64,000 nt of DNA from an uncultured Gemmatimonadales bacterium. GTDB taxonomy: Bacteria > Gemmatimonadota > Gemmatimonadetes > Gemmatimonadales > GWC2-71-9. The position numbers and the translations under genes are program-made. Of this stretch, positions 48,339-58,369 are shown one piece after another. Numbering within the stretch: the first letter of the stretch is position 1; the number at the start of each line of letters is the position of its first letter. The stretch covers positions 1,152,001-1,216,000 of the forward strand of contig CAVZZO010000001.1 of the NCBI GenBank assembly GCA_963779755.1. Reading direction: 5' to 3'. Under the pieces are notes generated by a model. The model was not told where the DNA came from. It did no database searches and was given only the letters and a program-made list of their open reading frames with translations.

Positions 48339-48853
48339 GCGGGCCAGCGACTACGGTTCCCGCCGGCCGGGGCATCCGGCTGGCTATTCTCACGGTGTCG
48401 GATGCGGGGAGCCGCGGGCAGCGGGAGGATACTTCGGGCGACGCCATTGCCGCCTGGGGGCCGGAGCACGGCTGCCACATCGCCGGGCGGGCGCTGGTGC
48501 CGGACGATCCGGTGCGCATCGCGGCGCAGCTGATGCACTGGGCCGACGGCGGCGCGGTGGATGTCGTGCTTACCACCGGCGGTACCGGGCTGGCCGAGCG
48601 CGACCATACCCCCGAAGCCACCCGCAGCGTGCTGGAGCGCGAGGTCCCCGGCCTGGCCGACGCCCTGCGCGCGTCCGCATGGCCCGCCGTTCCCCGGGCG
48701 CTGCTCTCCCGCGGCCTGGCCGGCACCCGGGGCCGCACCCTCATCGTCAATCTGCCCGGGAGCCCCGGCGGGGTTCGCGACGGCCTCACCGTGCTCGCGC
48801 CGGTGCTGGCCCATGCGGTGGACCTGCTGCGCGGCCGGACGGAGCACCCCTGA
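48335..48853 (+). CDS. mog: Molybdopterin adenylyltransferase, MogA/MoaB family
   Basis: [30 protein letters not shown]. Confidence 0.88.
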
Positions 48854-48855
48854 TC

Positions 48856-50352
48856 ATGGCCCGGGTGCTCATCACCATGGATGACATCGAAGCCGCGGTG
48901 CGGATCAACGCCGCGCTCGAGACCGGCGGGTACACCACCGCCATGGTCTCCAGCGTGGACGATGGCCCGCGTGCGCTCTCGCGCGAGCATCCCGAGCTGG
49001 TGATCCTGACCGGCGCCCTGCACGATCCCCCCGCCCGCCAGCTGGCGCTGGCGGCGCGCGACACGGAAATCAGCACCCTGGCCCTGCTGGAGCCGACCGA
49101 TGCTGGTCGGATGGAACATGACCTCGGCGTTACCGAGATCATGACCAAGCCGGTACATCCGGAGGAGGTGGTGCAGACCGCCCAGCGGCTCATCGCGCGA
49201 CGTGAGCTGCAGGAGCGCACCGGGATCATCGGCGAGAGCCCGGGCATCCAGGAACTGATGGTCAAGATCGAGCAGATGGCTCCGGTCTCCAGTACCGTGC
49301 TGATCCAGGGCGAGTCGGGGACGGGCAAGGAGCTGGTGGCCAAGGCCATCCACGATCTCTCCCCCCGGCGGGGCAAGCCCTTCATCGCGGTGAACTGCGC
49401 CGCCCTGCCCGAGGCGCTGCTGGAAAGCGAGCTGTTCGGGCACGAGAAGGGCGCCTTCACCGGGGCGGCGGAGCGCCGGCTGGGCCGCTTCGAGCTGGCC
49501 GACGGGGGCACCATCTTCCTGGACGAAATCGGCGAGGTGCCTCCCAGCGTGCAGGTGAAACTGCTGCGGGTGCTGGAGAACCGGGTGTTCTTCCGGGTGG
49601 GCGGCACCCAGGGCATCAAGGTGGACGTGCGGGTCATCGCGGCGACCAACAAGAATCTCAAGGAATCGGTGGCGCTGGGCGAGTTCCGGGACGACCTCTT
49701 CTACCGGCTCAATGTGCTCACCATCTTCCTGCCGCCCCTGCGGGAGCGCCGGGAGGACATTCCGCTCCTGGTTCGCCGGTTCATCCGGGAATTCGCCCAG
49801 GGCGAGGATCGCCGCTTCCGCGGGATCACGCAGGAGGCCATGCGCCTCCTGGTGGAGGCCCAGTGGCCCGGCAACGTGCGCCAGCTGCGCAACCTGGTCG
49901 AGGCCATGGCGGTGCTGGCGCCCGGCAGCGAGATCCGCGCATCGGACATTCCACCGGACATCCTGGAGGGGGCGAGCCGGCTTCTGCCCATGCGGCTGCC
50001 GCAGGTGCAGCGCGACGCGCAGACCCAGGAACTGGAGTTCATTCTCCGCAGCCTGGTGGAGTTGCGGCTCCAGGTGGAAGAGCTCCGGCGGCGCCTGGAC
50101 CAGCGGCCCCAGCGGGTCCAGGTGATCGACCTCGGCCCCAGCCATTCCATCGCCGATGTGGTGGACGAGGCGGAGCCGGGCGAGCCCGAAGCGGTTCTCT
50201 ACCGCTCGGGGATGACCATGGCGGAGGTGGAGAAAGCGGCGATCGAGGCCGCGCTGCAGGAGCACCGGGGCAACCGTCGCAAGGCGGCCGAGGCACTGGG
50301 AATCGGGGAGCGGACGCTCTATCGTAAGATCAAGGCTTACAATCTGGAGTAG
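48856..50352 (+). CDS. Sigma54-dependent enhancer-binding protein with pseudo-receiver domain
   Basis: GESGTGKE, ESELFGHEKGAFTGA, FLDEIGE, WPGNVRQLRN, Fis HTH; REC-like N-terminus ELVILTG lacks the phospho-Asp. Confidence 0.9.
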   Translation: MARVLITMDDIEAAVRINAALETGGYTTAMVSSVDDGPRALSREHPELVILTGALHDPPARQLALAARDTEISTLALLEPTDAGRMEHDLGVTEIMTKPVHPEEVVQTAQRLIARRELQERTGIIGESPGIQELMVKIEQMAPVSSTVLIQGESGTGKELVAKAIHDLSPRRGKPFIAVNCAALPEALLESELFGHEKGAFTGAAERRLGRFELADGGTIFLDEIGEVPPSVQVKLLRVLENRVFFRVGGTQGIKVDVRVIAATNKNLKESVALGEFRDDLFYRLNVLTIFLPPLRERREDIPLLVRRFIREFAQGEDRRFRGITQEAMRLLVEAQWPGNVRQLRNLVEAMAVLAPGSEIRASDIPPDILEGASRLLPMRLPQVQRDAQTQELEFILRSLVELRLQVEELRRRLDQRPQRVQVIDLGPSHSIADVVDEAEPGEPEAVLYRSGMTMAEVEKAAIEAALQEHRGNRRKAAEALGIGERTLYRKIKAYNLE

Positions 50353-50408: not shown

Positions 50409-52166
50409 ATGCCCCCCGCGGTACGGGATATTCCAGAGGCTCCAAAACCATTTGTCCCTGAATCGCCCCGGTCCCGAGTCCCAGCGGTGATCTTTTCGAT
50501 CGACTCGAAAGCCTGTGTCGCATGCCTCGCGTGCGTGCGCATCTGTCCGACCGATGCGATCGCCGTCGAGGAGCCGCTGGTGCACATTGTCGACGACGTG
50601 TGCATCCGCTGCGGGCAGTGCTACGCCGTCTGTCCGCACGACGCGGTGCAGGTGAGCGGCGAGCTGGGGCGCGCGCTGGCGATCGCCGCGACCGGCGAGG
50701 GTACGCTGATCCTGAGCCCCGAGGTCGCGGCGCACTTCTATCCGGCCACGCCGGAGCAGGTGGTGAATGCCTGCTACGCGGCGGGCTTCCGGGTGGTAAC
50801 GCGCGGGGTGATCGGCGACGAGCTGGTGGCGGCCGAGTATCTCAGGCTGTGGCACGACGATGCCTGGGGTACCATGCTGCGCTCCACCGATCCGGTGGTG
50901 GTCAGCACCATCACCGCGGCGTATCCCGAGCTGGTGCCCTTTCTGGCGCCCATCGCGTCGCCTCCGGTGGCCGAAGCGCGCTATCTCCGCGCGCTGTATG
51001 GCCCGGAGCTGCGGATCGTGTTCGCCGGAATCTGCCCGCCCCAGCACGGCCCCGATCTCGATGCCGGGATCACCTTCCGTGACCTGGAACAGGTCTTTGC
51101 CCTGCGCGGGGTGAGCGTACTGACGCAGCCGGACTATTTCGTGCGGGTGCCGGAGGAGCGGCGCCGCCACCTGAGCGCGGCGGGCGGGTTGCCGCTGGCC
51201 ATGCTGGAGGAGGTGCGCCAGTCCAACAGCCGGTTCCGCAAGGTACGCGGAGTGAACGCGCTGCCGGCGCTGGCGCGGGCGGTGGCGGTGGATCGTCTCG
51301 ACCTCGGCTTCGTGGACATCCTCTCCTATGAGGGGGCGCTGGACCATCCGCTGTCCGGGCCGCCGGAGGAGCTGTTCTGGCGCCGCGCGCTGGTGCAGAG
51401 CACTGAGCCGCCCCGCAGTCGCGATCCGGTAGTGGATACGGCGGTGGTCGCCAGCGTGGGCGCCACCTTCGACATCCGGCCCCAGCGGCATGCCGCCGAT
51501 CCGGACGCGGTTGCCGCGGTGCTCAAGGCCATTGGCCCGGGGCCCAACGGCCGGCCCTGGGATTGCCGGGCCTGCGGCTACGAGACCTGCGCGGAGTTTG
51601 CCGAGGCGGCGGCGCTGGGCCGGGCCGCCCTGCGGCAATGCGCGCCGTTCCAGGAGCGGCGGGCGGAGGAGGCGCAGCGCGCCGCGGCGGTAGACCTGCT
51701 GACCGGTCTGGCCACCTTCCGGGTGCTGCGCGACCGGCTCCAGTTCGAGGTGGAGCGCAGCAAGCGGAACGGCGAGGCCTTCGCCACCCTGTTCATCGAT
51801 CTGGACCATTTCAAGCAGGTGAACGATCTTCACGGCCATGAAGCCGGGAACGAGGTGCTCCGGGCGGTGGCGGCGGAGATCCGCTCCGCGGTGCGCGCCT
51901 CGGATCTGGCGGCGCGCTACGGCGGCGACGAATTTGTGGTCATCCTGACACGGACCGATCTGGCGGGGGCGTCGCGGGTGGCCGAGGCGCTGCGAGCCGG
52001 TATCGAGGGGGTGGGGCGGCGGCTGGGGTACGGTGTCGGGTTGGTGACGGCCAGTGTGGGGCTGGCAGAATACAACCCCGAGGAGCCGCCGGAGGGTGAC
52101 CTGCTGGTCCTCGCCGACCGCTCGCTCTATGTGGCTAAGTCCGCCGGGCGGAATGTGGTGGCATGA
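50409..52166 (+). CDS. Fe-S diguanylate cyclase: 2x[4Fe-4S] ferredoxin + degenerate [FeFe]-hydrogenase-like domain + FeS domain + GGDEF
   Basis: CVACLACVRICP, CIRCGQCYAVCP, YPELVPFLAPIASP, DCRACGYETC..C, DLDHFKQVND, RASD..RYGGDEF. Start uncertain. Confidence 0.85.
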   Translation: MPPAVRDIPEAPKPFVPESPRSRVPAVIFSIDSKACVACLACVRICPTDAIAVEEPLVHIVDDVCIRCGQCYAVCPHDAVQVSGELGRALAIAATGEGTLILSPEVAAHFYPATPEQVVNACYAAGFRVVTRGVIGDELVAAEYLRLWHDDAWGTMLRSTDPVVVSTITAAYPELVPFLAPIASPPVAEARYLRALYGPELRIVFAGICPPQHGPDLDAGITFRDLEQVFALRGVSVLTQPDYFVRVPEERRRHLSAAGGLPLAMLEEVRQSNSRFRKVRGVNALPALARAVAVDRLDLGFVDILSYEGALDHPLSGPPEELFWRRALVQSTEPPRSRDPVVDTAVVASVGATFDIRPQRHAADPDAVAAVLKAIGPGPNGRPWDCRACGYETCAEFAEAAALGRAALRQCAPFQERRAEEAQRAAAVDLLTGLATFRVLRDRLQFEVERSKRNGEAFATLFIDLDHFKQVNDLHGHEAGNEVLRAVAAEIRSAVRASDLAARYGGDEFVVILTRTDLAGASRVAEALRAGIEGVGRRLGYGVGLVTASVGLAEYNPEEPPEGDLLVLADRSLYVAKSAGRNVVA

Positions 52167-52206
52167 GCGCCCGGCATCGCTCTCTACCCCGGGCAAAGGA
52201 TTTGCA

Positions 52207-52944
52207 TTGACTTCCTTCTCACCTCGTCCCCAGGATCCCGGCCAGCCGAGCCGGCCGATGACGGAGATGACTCCCGATCCCTGGGGGGTGCGGCGGGCGG
52301 AGAACCTGCTGGCCAGCCTGGAGGGAATTCTCTCGGCGCGGGTCATCACCACGCCCCTGGGCGAGGTGAGCGAGGTCCACATTCTGGCGCAGGCCGGGCT
52401 GGCGCCCAAGCAGATCGTGCGGAACGTGGAGTCCGCCCTGCTGGCGCAGCTGGGCCTGAAGGTGGACCACCGCAAGATCAGCGTGGCGCAGACGGCCGAA
52501 GTGCGGCCGCTGGAGGCGCTGGACCGGGAGGCGGTGCGCGACCGGGCCATGAAGCGCGGGGTCCTGTTCGAGGCGCTGGCGGTCTCGCCGGGGCGGCCGC
52601 ACCGGCTGGCGATCCGGGTGTCGCTCTCCTACGACGGCCAGAGCGAGACGGCCGAGGAGGAAGCCGCGGATACCACTCGGGGGCGGATCGAAGGCGCCGC
52701 GCGGGCGGCGGTGAGCGTGCTGGACAAGCTGCTCAAGGAGAGTTCGGTGGCGCTGGAGGGCGCCAAGATTTTCGAGGCATTCGACCGCGAGTTCGTGCTG
52801 GCGGGCGTGCAGGGTCTGGGGGGGCGGGATTCGCTGCTCCTGACCGGCACGGCGCAGATCAAGGACAGCCCCGAGCGGGCGGCCGTCTTTGCGGTCCTGG
52901 ATGCAACCAACCGCTGGGTAGCGCCCCGGCGGAGCGCGGTGTAG
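52207..52944 (+). CDS. Conserved hypothetical cytoplasmic protein
   Basis: AAAGGA RBS before TTG 52207 (alternative ATG 52258); EVHILA..PKQIVRNVESAL..VDHRKISVAQ and AVLDATNR. Confidence 0.8.
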   Translation: MTSFSPRPQDPGQPSRPMTEMTPDPWGVRRAENLLASLEGILSARVITTPLGEVSEVHILAQAGLAPKQIVRNVESALLAQLGLKVDHRKISVAQTAEVRPLEALDREAVRDRAMKRGVLFEALAVSPGRPHRLAIRVSLSYDGQSETAEEEAADTTRGRIEGAARAAVSVLDKLLKESSVALEGAKIFEAFDREFVLAGVQGLGGRDSLLLTGTAQIKDSPERAAVFAVLDATNRWVAPRRSAV

Positions 52945-53154
52945 GTGTCGAGCCGGTGACCCCGCGCGGGTGAGCCGGCGGCTGGACCGTTTTCGACATT
53001 CAGGATAAGGAGATAAGGGGGGAGGGGGCCGCAGTTTTCGCAGTATCAGCGGAGGCTAGCGGTACAACACGAGCGGAGCGTCCGGTGGGCCATAGCGAGG
53101 CTTGCCACTTCCGAAGGTACGGTCTCAACGTGACTGGACGAGGGGGTGACGCTC

Positions 53155-53220
53155 ATGTTCGCATCTGCTATCAGATGGATTGCCAAGGCCCTGTGGTTGA
53201 CTGAAGGACAAGTCTGGTAA
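53155..53220 (+). CDS. 21-aa peptide MFASAIRWIAKALWLTEGQVW, candidate signalling peptide
   Basis: GAGGGGGTG RBS shortly before the ATG, clean TAA, 37 nt before the HD-GYP gene; absent from the supplied ORF track. Confidence 0.7.
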   Translation: MFASAIRWIAKALWLTEGQVW

Positions 53221-53257
53221 TTCACAGAGCCTGGCCCCCTTTCCTCGTCTTCCCCCC

Positions 53258-54638
53258 ATGCGCAAGCCACCACTGATTACCTCCTATGTGGCCACGGTGG
53301 GCTTTTTTGCGGCCGTGGGACTTGCGTGGTCTTTTATGCACCGTTTCCCTGCCCCAAGTCCGTGGGATTTGGGTGCGTTCTTGTTGGTTGCTCTAGTCAT
53401 CGAAAGCACGAACTCCTCCCTAAGAATCCATGCAAAGGGATCGGCGAGTTTCATTGTTCACATGGCGGCTGGCCTTTTGTTCGGTCCCTTCTGGGCTGCA
53501 CTGATTGCTGGGATTTCAACCGCTGTAAACCAGACCTTCGCGTTGCGAGTTCCGGCTATCCGCGTTGCTTTCAATGTGGCGCAAAGAGTCCTCTCGATAT
53601 CAATTGCTGTTCTCGTATATGAGTTGCTGGGGGGGCATTTGCCCCCGGTGTACCTGTCCGGGGCTACTGGAATTAGTCCGCTAGAGGTCCAGCGTGATCT
53701 TGGACTCTTCTTTGTATTCTCCTTGACCTACTTTGTTATTAACTCCGCCTCTGTTAGTGCTGCGATCGCTATCAGCTCTAGGCGTCAGTTCTTGGAGGTG
53801 TGGGGGGGGAATACGAAGGGAGTTGTAGGCTACGATCTGGGTGCCAGCGCTATTGCCATCATCATGGCTTGGCTATTTGTATTCTGCCAGAACCAATGGG
53901 GTTTCGGATCAATCGGCATCGTGGGGGTTGTTGTCCCGATCGAATTTGTAAGGAGAATTTATGGGATGTACCGGCACCTTGAGGCTACAAGCCAAGAGCT
54001 GCTGGAGGTGATGGTCAAGGCCATTGAGGCGCGAGATCCTTACACATCGGGTCACTCGGAGCGAGTGGCTAAAATATCCCAGCGTGATTGCCCAACAGCA
54101 CGGTGGACTGGTGCTGAGGAAATAGAAAAGATATATAAGGCCGCTCTTCTTCACGATGTTGGAAAGATGTATGAAGAGTATGCGCCCTTACTGCGCAAGG
54201 AATCAAAGCTGACGCCCGAGGAGCGGGAGCTGCTTACAGACCCATGCTGTCAGAAGCGCTGAATTGGTCGGGATCGTTTCTGATTTTAGAGGGACTGTTC
54301 TTGAGGCAGTAAGAAGTCATCATGAGCGCTGGGATGGCCGTGGCTATCCAAACGGGGTCGCGGGTGAAGGGATTCCCATTGGGGCTCGGATTATCATGGT
54401 CAGCGGATACAATAGATGCAATGACTACTGATCGACCCTACCGTAAAGCGCTGGGGGCGTAGATGTCGTGATGGCGGAGTTGCAGAGACACCGAGGAACT
54501 CAGTTTGACCCGAAGCTTGTGGACCTTGTCATGGGGTCAGTTACGATTAGGAGACAGATCGGGGCCTTCGGTACCTCTCAAACTGAGGGAGGAGAGGCAG
54601 TCGAAAGATCTGTTCATCTGATCAAAAGAATTCAATAA
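53258..54638 (+). CDS. Membrane-sensor HD-GYP phosphodiesterase, frameshifted in this sequence
   Basis: Multi-TM N-terminus; EARDPYTSGHSERV and LLHDVGK; shifted frames continue with HHERWDGRGYP (54318-54350), ARIIMVADTIDAMTTDRPYRKAL and GTQFDP, ending at TAA 54636-54638. Confidence 0.85.
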
Positions 54639-54643
54639 ACTAC

Positions 54644-57600
54644 TTACGGGGCCACCTCGAATGGCGGGCTTTGCCCGAGGCTCTCAATCTGGACTAAGCA
54701 TGGTCCCGGCAGAGCTTCTAGAATCCGGTAAAGCTCCTCTGTCTGCTCAACTCTCTTCTCTCCCTGCTCGCCATTGAGCCATAGGCTCGCAGCCAATATC
54801 TCAGCCCGATCTAGGGTATCAAACTCATGAATCCGCGAAAGGAGCGAGTCGATGATGGTCCGTGCCTCTCGCTCACGCCCTTGGTAGGTGCCCACAAAGG
54901 CGGTGTGTCTTGCGAACGAACCGGCGATAGCCGCATAGGCTAGCTGGTTACCCTGGCGACCGAGGGCTTCCTCTGCCACGGCTAAGGACGCTTCAGTGTT
55001 ACCAAGAGCTCGGTAGACATCCGCGGTGCGCAGGCCGACGAGCTGTTGCATGGCCGGGATAGTCATTGCTGCGAGCTCCCTATGGCGTTTCTCAAGTAGT
55101 GCCGCTGCCTCTGAGCGTCGACCACGCAGAGCAAGGCTCCAAGCATAGTTGAGGTACTGTGATAGGAAGTGGCCGTCATGGTTCATTGAAGGCCGTCTCA
55201 TTAGTTCCGCAACCCAGCGTGCCTGCTCTTCGTAATCCCCTAGTCTGAAATTGCACAGTGCGAGATTTGCACTGCAGACTTCTTGCTGGCCTTCATGCCC
55301 GAGCGCTACAGCCAGCTCATAAGCTTTCTCGAACGGATGGAGAGCTGATTCATACTCGCCACGATTACAGAGCATGCATCCTAGGGCATTGTTCAATCGT
55401 GATGTGACGGAGCTGTTTATCTGTTCGTCTTCCAACTTGACAATCTGATCTCGCAGCACCTGGAGGGCCTCTAGACCCTCTGGTGTGCGGTAGGCGAGCT
55501 GTGCGATCACCAAGGCGCGCTGTGCTGCTGTTAAGAGATCAAGGTCTTCATCGGCCGCCGTCCGAAGGATCTCTAGCAAATCCTTATCAAGGGTGTAGTC
55601 CTCGCGCATCGTGCGAAGAGCAGCTGCATGGCCGAGGGCTCTCACCCTGATGTTGGGGTCGGTGGAATTGCGTGCGAGTTTCTCAAGTCGAAGCAGAAGC
55701 TCGAGGCTTTCGTCTGAAGATGTGTTTCGTGATTGGCGCCTTGCCTCTCCAAGCATGAGGATCGCCAACTCGGCATTCCTCTCCCTTAGCTTCGTTGGCT
55801 CCCCCAGCACCTCCAGCGACTCCTCCCACCGACCCTGTTCCTGCAGCGCCTCCGCCCAGATGAGCCGGGCCTCCTCCTGCGTCTCCCCCTTCAGCGAATT
55901 GAACGCCGAGGTCAGCGCCCGCTCCGCCTCCAGGGGGGCGCCCTGGCGAATGGCTTCCCGAGCGCCCGCCAGCAAGTACGGCGTCGCCTGCTCGGTCCGG
56001 CCGGCCCGCATGCAATGCCAGGCGATCTCCAGACCCGGCACCGCCTGATCCTTCAGTGCCAGCAGCCGGTCGGCGATGTTGCCGTGCAGGGTGCGCCGCA
56101 GCGGGGAGGGCACCGCCAGGTAGGCTTCCGCCCGCACCAGCTCGTTGCTGAACTCCAGCCCCCGGCTGCCGTCACGCAGCACCCGCAGATCGGTCAGCCG
56201 CGCCAGGCTCGACATGGTTTCGCTCAGCGCCAGGTCGGCCAGCGCGTACATATCGAGGTCGTTGAGCCGGCTCCCCAGCAGGGCGGCCAGCCCCAGTGCG
56301 GTGCGCGCCGAGGCGGGAAGCTCCCGCAGCAACCGCTCGAGAATCAGCCGGTAGGCGTCGCCGGCCCGCTTGCCCGGGCTCAGGTCTTCGGTCATGGCGC
56401 CCAGCGAGAGCGCCAGGGCCCCGTCACCGTTGGCCTGCCAGTCGCGCACCAGGTGCTCCAGCACCATGGGATAGCCGGCTGCGGCGCTCAGGATGGCGCG
56501 CCGGGCGACCAGCGGAGGCGCCGGGTCGTCGCCCACCAGGGCAGCCAGCAGGGCGGCGCTCTCGTCTTCGCTCATGGGCGGCAGGTCGAGCGAGGTCATG
56601 CGGATGCCGCTGCCGCCCTCTCGCAGCCGCACGGCGTTGGGCGAACGGTCCAATTCGGCGGGCCGGCCCGCCGCCAGCATCATGATGCGTTGGCGGTCGA
56701 GCCGGCGCAGCACCAGGTGGAGCACGGCCAGCGTGGCATCATCCGCCAGGTGCAGATCGTCCAGGACCAGGATGACCGGAAGATCCTCGGCCAGCGTGGT
56801 CAGCAACTGGAAGGCGGCTTCGGCCAGCCGCAGCCGGGCCGTCTCGCCCAGGCTCTCCGGCGGCTCCGGAATGCCGGGAAAGCGCCGGCGCACCTCGGGT
56901 TGAAGCCGGGCCAGCTCCGCCAGCCACTCCGGCGCCGTTCCCGCCACCCCCGGAAGCCGCAGGAGCCCTTCGATCAGGCTCCCCAGCCCGGCATAGGGGA
57001 TCTCCTGTTCCAGCTCGTAGCACTGCACCCGGCTCACCGCGGCGCCCTCCAGCTCGGCAGCCGTCATGACGCGGCCCAGCAGCGTGCTCTTGCCCACCCC
57101 GCTGTCGCCCAGCACGAGGGCATGCGACGGGTTGCCCCGGCGGGTTTCCTCCCACAACTCGTAGAGCTGCTGGTACTCCCGGGTGCGGCCGAGGAAGAGG
57201 CGTCCGCGCCACTGCTCGGTGCGGATGGCGGGAGATTCTCCCGAGGGCACCCGCTCCCAGCCGCGCCGGCGCAGCCGGGCCGCCATCTGCTCCAGCTCCG
57301 GCGAGGGCTCGGCCTGCAGCTCCTCGGCCAGACGGGCGCGCCACTGCTCGTAGAGCTTGAGGGCGCTCAGACGGTCCCCCTCAAAGGCGCGCGCTTCCAT
57401 CCGGGCGCGAATGCCCTCTTCCGACAGCTCGTCCAGGCCCAGCAGGCACTCGGCGTGGCGGTCCATCTCCCGGAAGGCGCCGGTGCGGCGGCAGCGGTCG
57501 ATCAGCAACCGCAGGGCGTCGCGCACCCCCGGCAGCCAGCGAGCCCACTGGCGTTCCCGCCACAGCTGGAACTCGGGAGCATCGGGGATCTCGAACTCCT

Positions 57601-57970
57601 CGAGGAATCCGGCTATCACCAGCGGCGGCGTGTAGTCGTCTCCCAGGACGGTACCGTCGGTGAGCCGGTCGAGATCCAGCGCGAAGTCGGACGGAGAGAA
57701 GCGGACGTGGTCGCGGTCGGTCTCCAGGGATTCCCGTCCCAGCTTGCCCCGGAGCACCGACAGGGCAGTGGCAAGCGAATGACGGCCCTCGCCTGCCGTC
57801 ACATTGGGCCAGAGAAACTCGGCCAGGCGCTCCCGCCGGTGGGGCACGCCCCTGGCCTCGGCGGCGAGATAGAGCAGCAGCGCCAGGTGTTTGCGCACCC
57901 GGAACCGGCTCTCCTCGCCGTTGGGGAGGAGCAGCTGAGGTTGTCCCAGAAACCTGAGATAGTAGGGCAT
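54644..57970 (-). CDS. SARP/BTAD transcriptional regulator with STAND AAA ATPase and TPR domain
   Basis: LRFLGQPQL, KHLALLLYLA, RERLAEFLWP, EFQLWRE, Walker A GDSGVGKST, Walker B LVLDDLH, C-terminal TPR-like helices. Confidence 0.9.
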   Translation of the reverse strand: MPYYLRFLGQPQLLLPNGEESRFRVRKHLALLLYLAAEARGVPHRRERLAEFLWPNVTAGEGRHSLATALSVLRGKLGRESLETDRDHVRFSPSDFALDLDRLTDGTVLGDDYTPPLVIAGFLEEFEIPDAPEFQLWRERQWARWLPGVRDALRLLIDRCRRTGAFREMDRHAECLLGLDELSEEGIRARMEARAFEGDRLSALKLYEQWRARLAEELQAEPSPELEQMAARLRRRGWERVPSGESPAIRTEQWRGRLFLGRTREYQQLYELWEETRRGNPSHALVLGDSGVGKSTLLGRVMTAAELEGAAVSRVQCYELEQEIPYAGLGSLIEGLLRLPGVAGTAPEWLAELARLQPEVRRRFPGIPEPPESLGETARLRLAEAAFQLLTTLAEDLPVILVLDDLHLADDATLAVLHLVLRRLDRQRIMMLAAGRPAELDRSPNAVRLREGGSGIRMTSLDLPPMSEDESAALLAALVGDDPAPPLVARRAILSAAAGYPMVLEHLVRDWQANGDGALALSLGAMTEDLSPGKRAGDAYRLILERLLRELPASARTALGLAALLGSRLNDLDMYALADLALSETMSSLARLTDLRVLRDGSRGLEFSNELVRAEAYLAVPSPLRRTLHGNIADRLLALKDQAVPGLEIAWHCMRAGRTEQATPYLLAGAREAIRQGAPLEAERALTSAFNSLKGETQEEARLIWAEALQEQGRWEESLEVLGEPTKLRERNAELAILMLGEARRQSRNTSSDESLELLLRLEKLARNSTDPNIRVRALGHAAALRTMREDYTLDKDLLEILRTAADEDLDLLTAAQRALVIAQLAYRTPEGLEALQVLRDQIVKLEDEQINSSVTSRLNNALGCMLCNRGEYESALHPFEKAYELAVALGHEGQQEVCSANLALCNFRLGDYEEQARWVAELMRRPSMNHDGHFLSQYLNYAWSLALRGRRSEAAALLEKRHRELAAMTIPAMQQLVGLRTADVYRALGNTEASLAVAEEALGRQGNQLAYAAIAGSFARHTAFVGTYQGREREARTIIDSLLSRIHEFDTLDRAEILAASLWLNGEQGEKRVEQTEELYRILEALPGPCLVQIESLGQSPPFEVAP

Positions 57971-58369
57971 CGGCCTTGCCCGGGACCCGCGAGGGACGAG
58001 TAGTCTGCCGCCACCGATACAACCAAGTCTCAACTGCTTTGGGGGCCGCCGGATGGGACGGGCCCCCTCCCGGTATCCTGCGCCGCGAAACGACGGTTGT
58101 CCAGCGAGAGCGGGGAGGCGTTCCGGACCCGGTGGGTCAACCGGGACGCCCCTTCACGATCCAGGGCCGCTCTGGCCCATCCTTTTTCCTGGTGGGCATA
58201 AGCATTGCTCAATCCAGGGTATCCGCGCGGTCCCGGATGGTGCCGGACCGGCGCGGTACGTCCTAACATCAAGCATATCAACGTAGTACGAGCTTGTACC
58301 CGTGGTTCCGCCTGGGAACGAAAGCGGGGGGCAGGTCACGCGAAACACCAATGCCAGGAGCCGGGATCC

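Follow-up and report, generated by a model that had tools for sequence, protein, structure and literature searches.

What could a reading frame of 21 codons be doing directly ahead of the gene for a membrane receptor? The question is raised by a stretch of 64,000 nucleotides (nt) from an uncultured Gemmatimonadales bacterium (contig CAVZZO010000001.1, positions 1,152,001 to 1,216,000), called the window in the following. On its plus strand, a very short open reading frame (mini-ORF) extends from 53155 to 53220 (ATG at 53155, TAA at 53218-53220) and is followed by the gene for a receptor with a MASE9 sensor domain and an HD-GYP domain (53258..54638). An earlier note on this DNA had taken the two for a signalling pair, the peptide acting as ligand or membrane partner of the receptor and controlling the degradation of cyclic di-GMP (c-di-GMP). 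The present analysis reveals a conserved cassette with three parts in cis, namely a structured 5' leader RNA, the mini-protein gene and the MASE9-HD-GYP receptor gene. The mini-protein may well be a membrane partner of MASE9 that is produced under RNA-gated, translationally coupled control, a reading to which we assign a probability of roughly 55%.

A conserved mini-gene ahead of a MASE9 receptor

The mini-ORF of the window is preceded by a strong ribosome-binding site, GAGGGGGTG (plus strand, 53140-53148, read from the sequence). Its 21 codons encode MFASAIRWIAKALWLTEGQVW, a peptide with three Trp and the C-terminal end G-Q-V-W, and the stop codon is separated from the receptor ATG at 53258 by 37 nt. 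The earlier note had listed all of these features, giving the peptide end as G-x-x-W, and they are borne out by the sequence. The term amphipathic used there is also fair for the window copy, whose best 15-residue Kyte-Doolittle mean of 1.17 lies below the family median of 1.81.

Homologous loci were collected through the receptor. Among 8000 candidates scored, 4207 proteins matched at E <= 0.001, and the best 120 of these homologues are mostly about 460 amino acids (aa) long and consist of MASE9 and HD_5. Eighty loci from species-representative genomes and 80 from metagenomes were fetched. One hundred of them match the MASE9 part of P0002, the closest full-length relative of the window receptor (458 aa, with 85% identity over residues 1-326), and 87 were usable after removal of 13 with less than 150 nt upstream. 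An ATG ORF stands directly behind a GGAGGTGACGCTC-like context in 82 of these 87 loci; in L160, the ORF is present behind a variant context. The clear misses (L023, L049, L053 and L069) have the most distant receptors, with at most 31% identity. The carrier family of the loci named here belongs to the Gemmatimonadota, except where a second phylum is indicated.

These ORFs vary in the way expected of coding sequences. Among 24 disjoint, equally long pairs, differences at codon positions 1, 2 and 3 number 112, 66 and 207, and the ratio of synonymous to non-synonymous codon changes is 139:135 in the reading frame, compared with 40:241 and 21:251 when the two others are read. No internal stop was found in frame in 81 distinct ORFs, compared to 60 and 39 in the other two frames. 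A strong Shine-Dalgarno (SD) sequence precedes the mini-ORF in 80 of 81 loci. These patterns show that the mini-ORF is a real gene under purifying selection.

The predicted product is, in the family as a whole, one largely hydrophobic helix followed by a polar C-terminal tail, usually ..[AS][ED]G.xW. The 80 distinct peptides are 16-37 aa long, with a mean hydrophobic fraction of 0.71. Trp occurs within the last three residues in 65 of them, ..[AS][ED]G.xW being a frequent ending. A 15-residue hydropathy window of at least 1.6 is reached by 56 of 79 peptides, the one in the window, with 1.17, not being among them.

Sequence databases give little hint of this family. In tblastn, the window peptide found nothing but itself among the first 82 loci, so the family becomes visible just through position and context. 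Pfam gave nothing below E 0.1 for the 77 of 80 aligned peptides that were scanned (the three others being <20 aa), and NCBIfam gave nothing below E 0.1 for three mini-peptides. Eight of ten mini-proteins looked up exist in the protein collection, any with names as 'hypothetical protein'. In fact, most of the mini-genes fall below the length that gene callers handle, and such partners are therefore systematically overlooked. In one of two near-identical metagenome loci, L135, the mini-ORF runs into the receptor region (gap -35), while its stop is normal in L136; the read-through is probably due to a one-base difference or an assembly error.

As for the receptor, the earlier note had described a multi-transmembrane sensor fused to an HD-GYP domain. 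The domains are indeed there. The downstream product matches PF20972 (MASE9) with 27.4 bits at a cut-off of 24.3, over residues 51-219 (plus strand, about 53408-53914), and HD and HD_5 models match as well; the HD-GYP motifs HDVGK and HHERWDGRGYP are found in frame 1 and in a second frame, respectively, with a fragment scoring 2.5e-11 against HD_5. The single open frame from 53258 to 54638 does not stand. According to Pfam, three-frame translations and comparison with P0002 and P0003, receptor frame 1 runs into a stop at 54262, and what is left of the HD-GYP domain is spread in pieces over the other two frames. A single intact frame of about 460 codons is not found in the window assembly.

With P0002 as reference, five length changes were located on the plus strand, all at base runs, and the codons between them are almost unchanged. 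They are CC to CCC at about 54078-80, GGG to GG at about 54110, a gain of one base at about 54235, G to GG at about 54405 and GGG to GGGGG at about 54453-57. Other frame-split receptor copies were found in L174 and L192, the assemblies of which number 6 and 3 contigs. For the genome that contains the window the figure is 4, and no split copy came from assemblies of at least 20 contigs. The five indels are probably assembly errors rather than gene decay, since all of them are changes of run length in highly conserved codons and since split copies are confined to assemblies of few contigs. Public reads amounted to one DNA run and no RNA run; the contig from the former spans 53488-53690, outside all five indel sites.

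The leader RNA and the long-range helix P0

The 130 nt upstream of the mini-ORF are conserved at the nucleotide level, with AGCGG words at three or four places. In the window, a leader of about 135 nt on the plus strand (53025..53160) matches the covariance model R1 built for this element with 98.3 bits, and its AGCGG words start at 53048, 53058 and 53072. RNAalifold, applied to 57 leaders, gave a three-helix junction of 18 pairs, 12 of which have compensatory changes. In helix A, the consensus GCGUC pairs with GACGC just ahead of the start codon of the mini-ORF (3' strand GACGCUC, 53148-53154 in the window). Hairpin P3 has eight pairs and the consensus loop AUAGCGAG; the window version extends from 53084 to 53108 and has the loop AUAGCGA. 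In helix B, the anti-SD ACUUC is paired with the SD GGAGGU, the corresponding plus-strand elements of the window being CUUCC (53108-53112) and GAGGGGG (53140-53146).

In an alignment of 86 sequences, which was fitted to R1 itself, so that the independent count is the MAFFT-based RNAalifold result of 12 in 18 pairs, 96.6% of cells are paired and 117 cells have double changes. None of 500 shuffles reached any of the observed measures, and slid controls had at most 54.5% of cells paired. Rfam 15 gave no match at E up to 1 in the region 52000-56500, nor in ten related loci. The covariation thus shows the leader to be a structured RNA, not contained in Rfam, that is predicted to pair the SD of the mini-ORF and the bases up to its start codon. 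This RNA was missing from the earlier note, as were the helix P0 described below and the broken HD-GYP frame.

A second element of the leader reaches beyond the mini-gene. The 5' end of the leader has its reverse complement in the spacer that follows the mini-ORF stop, and the two together form a long-range helix, P0. In the window fold, the 5' strand is purine-rich (GGAGAU..GGGGGGAGGGGGCC, plus strand, 53009..53030). The 3' strand, the pyrimidine-rich spacer CCUGGCCCCCUUUCCUCGUCUUCC (plus strand, 53230..53253), begins just past the mini-ORF stop and extends almost to the receptor ATG. The consensus of P0 is GGGGACCCCGG, preceded by GAAAGGA..AAGG, which pairs with CCGGGGUCCCC..CCUU. When the 277 nt of the window were folded, P0 and the junction were both formed and the AUG of the mini-ORF came to lie within an extension of helix A (-119.1 kcal/mol, z-score -3.58).

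P0 was also compared across loci. The best duplex in 61 loci had a median z-score of -3.0 relative to shuffled spacers, 44 of the 61 falling below -2, and pairing mostly sets in no more than a few bases from the mini-ORF stop codon. Cognate strands average -38.1 kcal/mol, as opposed to -29.6 kcal/mol for non-cognate strands; among all spacers, the cognate one ranks first in 14 of 59 loci and within the best tenth in 26 of 59. These comparisons show that P0, as predicted from folding, pairs the 5' end of the leader with the spacer that separates the two genes.

An SD for the receptor itself is usually lacking: a strong one stands ahead of its start in 9 of 81 loci only, and the 25 nt before the window receptor start are 88% pyrimidine with no SD. 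The gap between mini-ORF and receptor has a median of 38 nt, with a range of 22-111 nt. Considering the dimensions of the mRNA channel and the helicase of the ribosome, a ribosome standing at the mini-ORF stop must unwind at least the first turn of P0. From this we infer that translation of the receptor depends on translation of the mini-ORF.

The three parts also remain together in other genomes. One copy of R1 is present in the window's genome. The model matches in 65 of 151 sampled genomes of the phylum and in 58 of 71 genomes of the window's taxonomic family (the window's genome excluded), usually with one copy each. In loci found by means of the RNA, the mini-ORF follows the RNA in 30 of 30 cases, and the receptor follows the mini-ORF in 28 of 30, the other two ending at a contig edge. 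Conversely, the RNA is present in 45 of the 46 family genomes with a Pfam MASE9 match; in the exception, MASE9 lies at bases 3-317 of its contig. The R1 and MASE9/RNA tallies for the family include one unpublished genome, G057, whose locus L169 is one of the RNA-seeded rows. Leader RNA, mini-ORF and receptor thus form a strict three-part synteny. The link between small ORF and receptor noticed in the earlier note is supported by the 82 of 87 loci, by the codon-like substitutions and by the RNA-seeded loci.

No promoter-like site on the plus strand was found before the leader in a promoter and terminator scan of 52700-54900, and an alignment of the stretch before P0 revealed no shared promoter. 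In L105 and L107, strong GC-rich hairpins of the GGGCGCGCC..GGCGCGCCC type, which do not occur in the window, stand between the stop codon of the upstream gene X (see below) and P0. They may be terminators or repeat elements, and the leader may thus have its own promoter there.

The proposed function and its rivals

Is the mini-protein tied to the HD-GYP enzyme or to the sensor domain? Loci from a second phylum help to decide. Around L023, which belongs to the Actinomycetota, a MASE9 match above the cut-off was obtained in 106 of 301 sampled genomes, a tally that includes the unpublished genomes G420, G326, G391, G170, G300, G272 and G240. Of 30 loci returned, 29 were examined; L221, from the unpublished genome G420, was left out. 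An SD-preceded, hydrophobic upstream mini-ORF of the form MK[RK]..hydrophobic..[AG]G.xx[RK]W was found in 16 of the 29, and L224, L211 and L212 were added once mis-set receptor starts were allowed for, bringing the total to 19 of 29. Under a strict version of the pattern, 12 of 29 loci match upstream and none of the 29 matches downstream; in 2 of the 29, a match lies on the opposite strand. The first 16 loci were typed with Pfam, which gave 14 MASE9-HD-GYP proteins and two MASE9-HisKA-HATPase_c kinases. Since two of the receptors with a mini-ORF are histidine kinases, the mini-protein follows, as judged from gene order, the sensor domain MASE9 and not the output domain. The earlier note had mentioned, as unverified, similar short Trp-ending ORFs before membrane HD-GYP/GGDEF genes in other phyla, and for this second phylum the remark holds.

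Two arrangements in these genomes are worth recording. The genome of L208 has two MASE9 genes in tandem. In L204, L206, L213 and L215, tandem twin mini-ORFs with identical peptides, about 110 nt apart and each with its own SD, precede MASE9-HD-GYP genes of AT-rich genomes.

The leader is less readily recognised in the second phylum. Against 35 second-phylum and distant loci, R1 gave weak matches alone (L211 with 15.5 bits, plus L224 and L212), and the AGCGG words were therefore counted. Within 175 nt, seven second-phylum leaders (L196, L205, L211, L212, L217, L220 and L224) contain between two and four words of the AGCG[GA] type, with a background of <1 for the five leaders counted by script.

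These words bring in the gene next to the cassette. Gene X (plus strand, 52258..52944, start codon uncertain) encodes a 228-aa protein and is conserved upstream of the module, with relatives in that position in 83 loci. Ahead of it lies a gene for a diguanylate cyclase (plus strand, 50409-52166) that combines a ferredoxin and a hydrogenase-large-subunit-like iron-sulphur (Fe-S) module with GGDEF; such a cyclase was found upstream of the module in 64 loci, a count limited by flank length. X has no match in Pfam or NCBIfam and received no name from the ESM Atlas. Its AlphaFold2 model (mean predicted local distance difference test score 83.3) has two domains, an N-domain of alpha-beta-beta-alpha-beta order and a C-domain that resembles the regulatory domain of LeuA and citramalate synthase (Foldseek E 1.5e-6 to 2e-4). 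Homologues of X lie within the locus for 5 of 7 second-phylum leaders with at least two AGCG[GA] words versus 0 of 13 others, a small count from loci that are kin and thus non-independent, and with little flank in the case of L205. The excluded L221 also gave one tblastn match in the search for X homologues; no claim made here depends on unpublished genomes alone. Because X homologues accompany the AGCGG-rich leaders of the second phylum, X is proposed, as a lead, to be a candidate trans-acting factor that reads the AGCGG words, either as an RNA-binding or as a ligand-sensing regulator.

Put together, the cassette could operate as follows. In the ground state, the start sites of mini-ORF and receptor would both be closed. 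A trans-acting factor, for which X is the candidate, or a ligand would act on the invariant AGCGG words and open the junction. Ribosomes translating the mini-ORF up to its stop would melt P0 and allow initiation at the receptor start, so that both products would be made together. The mini-protein would then insert in the membrane and bind MASE9 as a subunit or intramembrane ligand, and in this bound form it would set the rate of c-di-GMP hydrolysis by the HD-GYP domain.

A serious competitor to this proposal is a purely regulatory upstream ORF. Its translation, perhaps with ribosome arrest at ..EGxxW-stop, would open P0, and the released peptide would be without function. The 3' strand of P0, running from the stop codon to the receptor ATG, and the 72 of 81 receptor starts without a strong SD would suit such a device equally. 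At 16-37 aa, moreover, most or all of the chain would still be in the exit tunnel at termination, given the established length of the tunnel. Conservation is best in the last five to six residues, as would be expected of an arrest sequence, yet over the full length of the ORF every second codon change is synonymous. Arrest would not need a hydrophobic helix, and nonetheless such a helix is kept in 80 divergent peptides ranging from 16 to 37 aa. An analogous mini-ORF also accompanies MASE9 in the second phylum, even where no R1-type leader was detected or where the output is a kinase. Because of the conserved hydrophobic helix and the pattern across phyla, a functional product is favoured, and a mini-ORF of solely regulatory use appears unlikely, though still to be taken seriously.

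Several points weigh against a membrane partner of MASE9 and should be considered together. With its stop codon set against an inhibitory helix, the mini-ORF looks precisely as an upstream ORF of purely regulatory use would, and the conserved motif at the C-terminus could serve to arrest the ribosome. The window peptide is only moderately hydrophobic (1.17) and has the charged residues Arg7, Lys11 and Glu17. A profile comparison of the peptides of the two phyla gave a probability of 1.1%, which does not support homology, and the cross-phylum pattern may be convergence. Ten of the 29 second-phylum MASE9 loci have no same-strand upstream mini-ORF of this type; among them, L218 is a doubtful case, and in L207 and L208 one of the same type lies on the opposite strand. 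The role of X, a lead, was drawn from gene neighbourhood and from the small, non-independent count given above. Furthermore, the indels in the receptor could be real, in which case the receptor of the window's genome would be dead. The cassette is known here from sequence alone. Co-folding of the 34-aa peptide of L092 with its MASE9 domain, both supplied as alignments, gave a score of 0.30, the mark being 0.32, and is counted neither for nor against the pairing.

The mini-protein might instead be the precursor of an exported signal. Its hydrophobic part would serve as signal or leader sequence, and the last three to six residues (..QxW, ..xRW) would be released outside the cell and sensed by MASE9, in the manner of SHP/Rgg, ComS/ComR and Phr. 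In SHP and ComS systems, small, unannotated hydrophobic precursors are as a rule encoded beside the receptor. Peptides of the second phylum do resemble Sec signal peptides: an n-region of the MKR type leads into a hydrophobic core and a c-region similar to A-G-A, after which just three to six residues remain, mostly ending in W; those of the window's family are, on the contrary, mostly without a basic N-terminus and an AxA-type site. The earlier note had drawn a related analogy to the agr and RRNPP peptide quorum systems. A small candidate precursor gene does stand beside the receptor, but genes for export or processing were not found with it, and the receptor is neither AgrC-like nor of the RRNPP type. 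The conserved neighbours, X and the Fe-S GGDEF cyclase, match no transporter or protease family, and the analogy finds no support. In addition, the outer loops of MASE9 are short and poorly conserved, according to the passages of its description that were available (10.1101/2021.11.05.467447). An exported signal is accordingly considered improbable.

Finally, the mini-ORF might encode a type I toxin-like membrane peptide, silenced by structured mRNA and only incidentally adjacent to the receptor. The peptide is short and hydrophobic, its SD is sequestered within an extensively folded 5' region, and GGAG words resembling an SD lie upstream, where they might offer ribosomes a standby site; the tisB and hok mRNAs have similar features. 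Such a toxin is nevertheless very hard to credit, because each genome has a single copy, always in the same position relative to the receptor, across the family and in the second phylum; P0 coupling to the receptor start argues for co-production and not for silencing, and no antisense partner turned up, although no search was aimed at antisense RNA.

A broader scheme can be sketched for both phyla. The Trp-tailed mini-protein would be an intramembrane ligand or subunit of MASE9 sensors, whether with HD-GYP or kinase output, and its synthesis would be gated by a new RNA class centred on the invariant AGCGG words. This RNA would be read by X as a two-domain RNA-binding protein whose LeuA-regulatory-like domain senses a metabolite, and a metabolic cue would thus set c-di-GMP turnover. 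As a whole, this scheme is speculative and doubtful.

Known systems and genomic setting

Small membrane proteins that modulate sensors or transporters are well known. MgrB and SafA act with PhoQ, and AcrZ with AcrB and KdpF with KdpABC belong to the same class. Like MgrB-type modulators, the mini-protein has <50 aa and tends to escape annotation, and a role in binding the membrane part of a sensor is proposed for it; a single hydrophobic helix is predicted for most of the family, less clearly for the window copy. The differences lie in its genetic arrangement and its target. Here, the mini-gene stands directly upstream of the presumed target, appears to be translationally coupled to it and would be gated by its own structured RNA. 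It is conserved together with the sensor domain across the family and in a second phylum, and the putative target is a MASE9 c-di-GMP phosphodiesterase or kinase.

A further comparison concerns leader-ORF attenuators such as the ermC leader and tnaC, and translational coupling through inhibitory mRNA structure in general. In ermC and tnaC, as here, a short upstream ORF ends beside a helix that masks the downstream start. In the present cassette, however, the upstream ORF has a conserved hydrophobic product and a proposed RNA gate of its own.

Examples of MASE9-HD-GYP proteins are TM1467 of T. maritima and HdgA of S. venezuelae (Galperin and Chou; 10.1101/2021.11.05.467447). The describers of MASE9 argue, in the passages available, that its ligand is bound within the membrane, and they report a single experimentally characterised member, which was poorly expressed (10.1101/2021.11.05.467447). 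The receptors studied here share the architecture of these phosphodiesterases, relatives of about 460 aa being abundant, whereas the window copy is out of frame in its HD-GYP part. The same passages mention no upstream mini-gene, leader RNA or partner (10.1101/2021.11.05.467447).

The nearest published analogue is found in Clostridioides difficile, where membrane proteins are under riboswitch control. According to the part of the report available, small membrane-associated proteins of 58 aa are encoded behind known c-di-GMP riboswitches of class I, which work through termination of transcription (PMC13724677). In both cases, small proteins, membrane-associated there and predicted to be so here, stand behind a structured regulatory RNA in c-di-GMP signalling. 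The C. difficile proteins, as described there, are not paired with a receptor gene, and the RNA of the present cassette differs from those riboswitches in that it is not in Rfam and is predicted to sequester the SD (PMC13724677).

No published description of the module was found in the literature on MASE9, HD-GYP, small membrane proteins and Gemmatimonad RNAs, supplements being outside the scope of the search. MASE9 is a widespread membrane sensor domain without a known signal, and the co-inherited mini-protein is the first concrete candidate for a partner, both for HD-GYP enzymes and for kinases. The leader, for its part, is an RNA motif new to Rfam, with AGCGG words that recur in two phyla. 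The cassette trio recurs in many related soil bacteria, and its position beside the Fe-S GGDEF cyclase suggests a compact unit for making and breaking c-di-GMP in soil bacteria of the Gemmatimonadota type.

Further upstream in the window, a gene for a sigma-54 activator lies on the plus strand at 48679-50352. DUF5317 was not found in the window's genome, which is 97% complete. From 53000 to 55700, the G+C content of the window falls from about 70% to about 52%. Recent horizontal transfer was considered as the cause and rejected, since relatives show the same dip: in 25 loci measured, the module has a G+C content of 0.52-0.61 and the flank one of 0.64-0.72. For the same reason, the low G+C content is regarded as an inherited, conserved trait of the module. 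On the minus strand, an ORF convergent to the receptor gene (54644-58033) encodes a STAND-type regulator of 1129 aa with BTAD, AAA_16 and TPR domains. The C-terminal third of this ORF, including the TPR part, lies in the low-G+C stretch, and the rest has a G+C content of about 72%.

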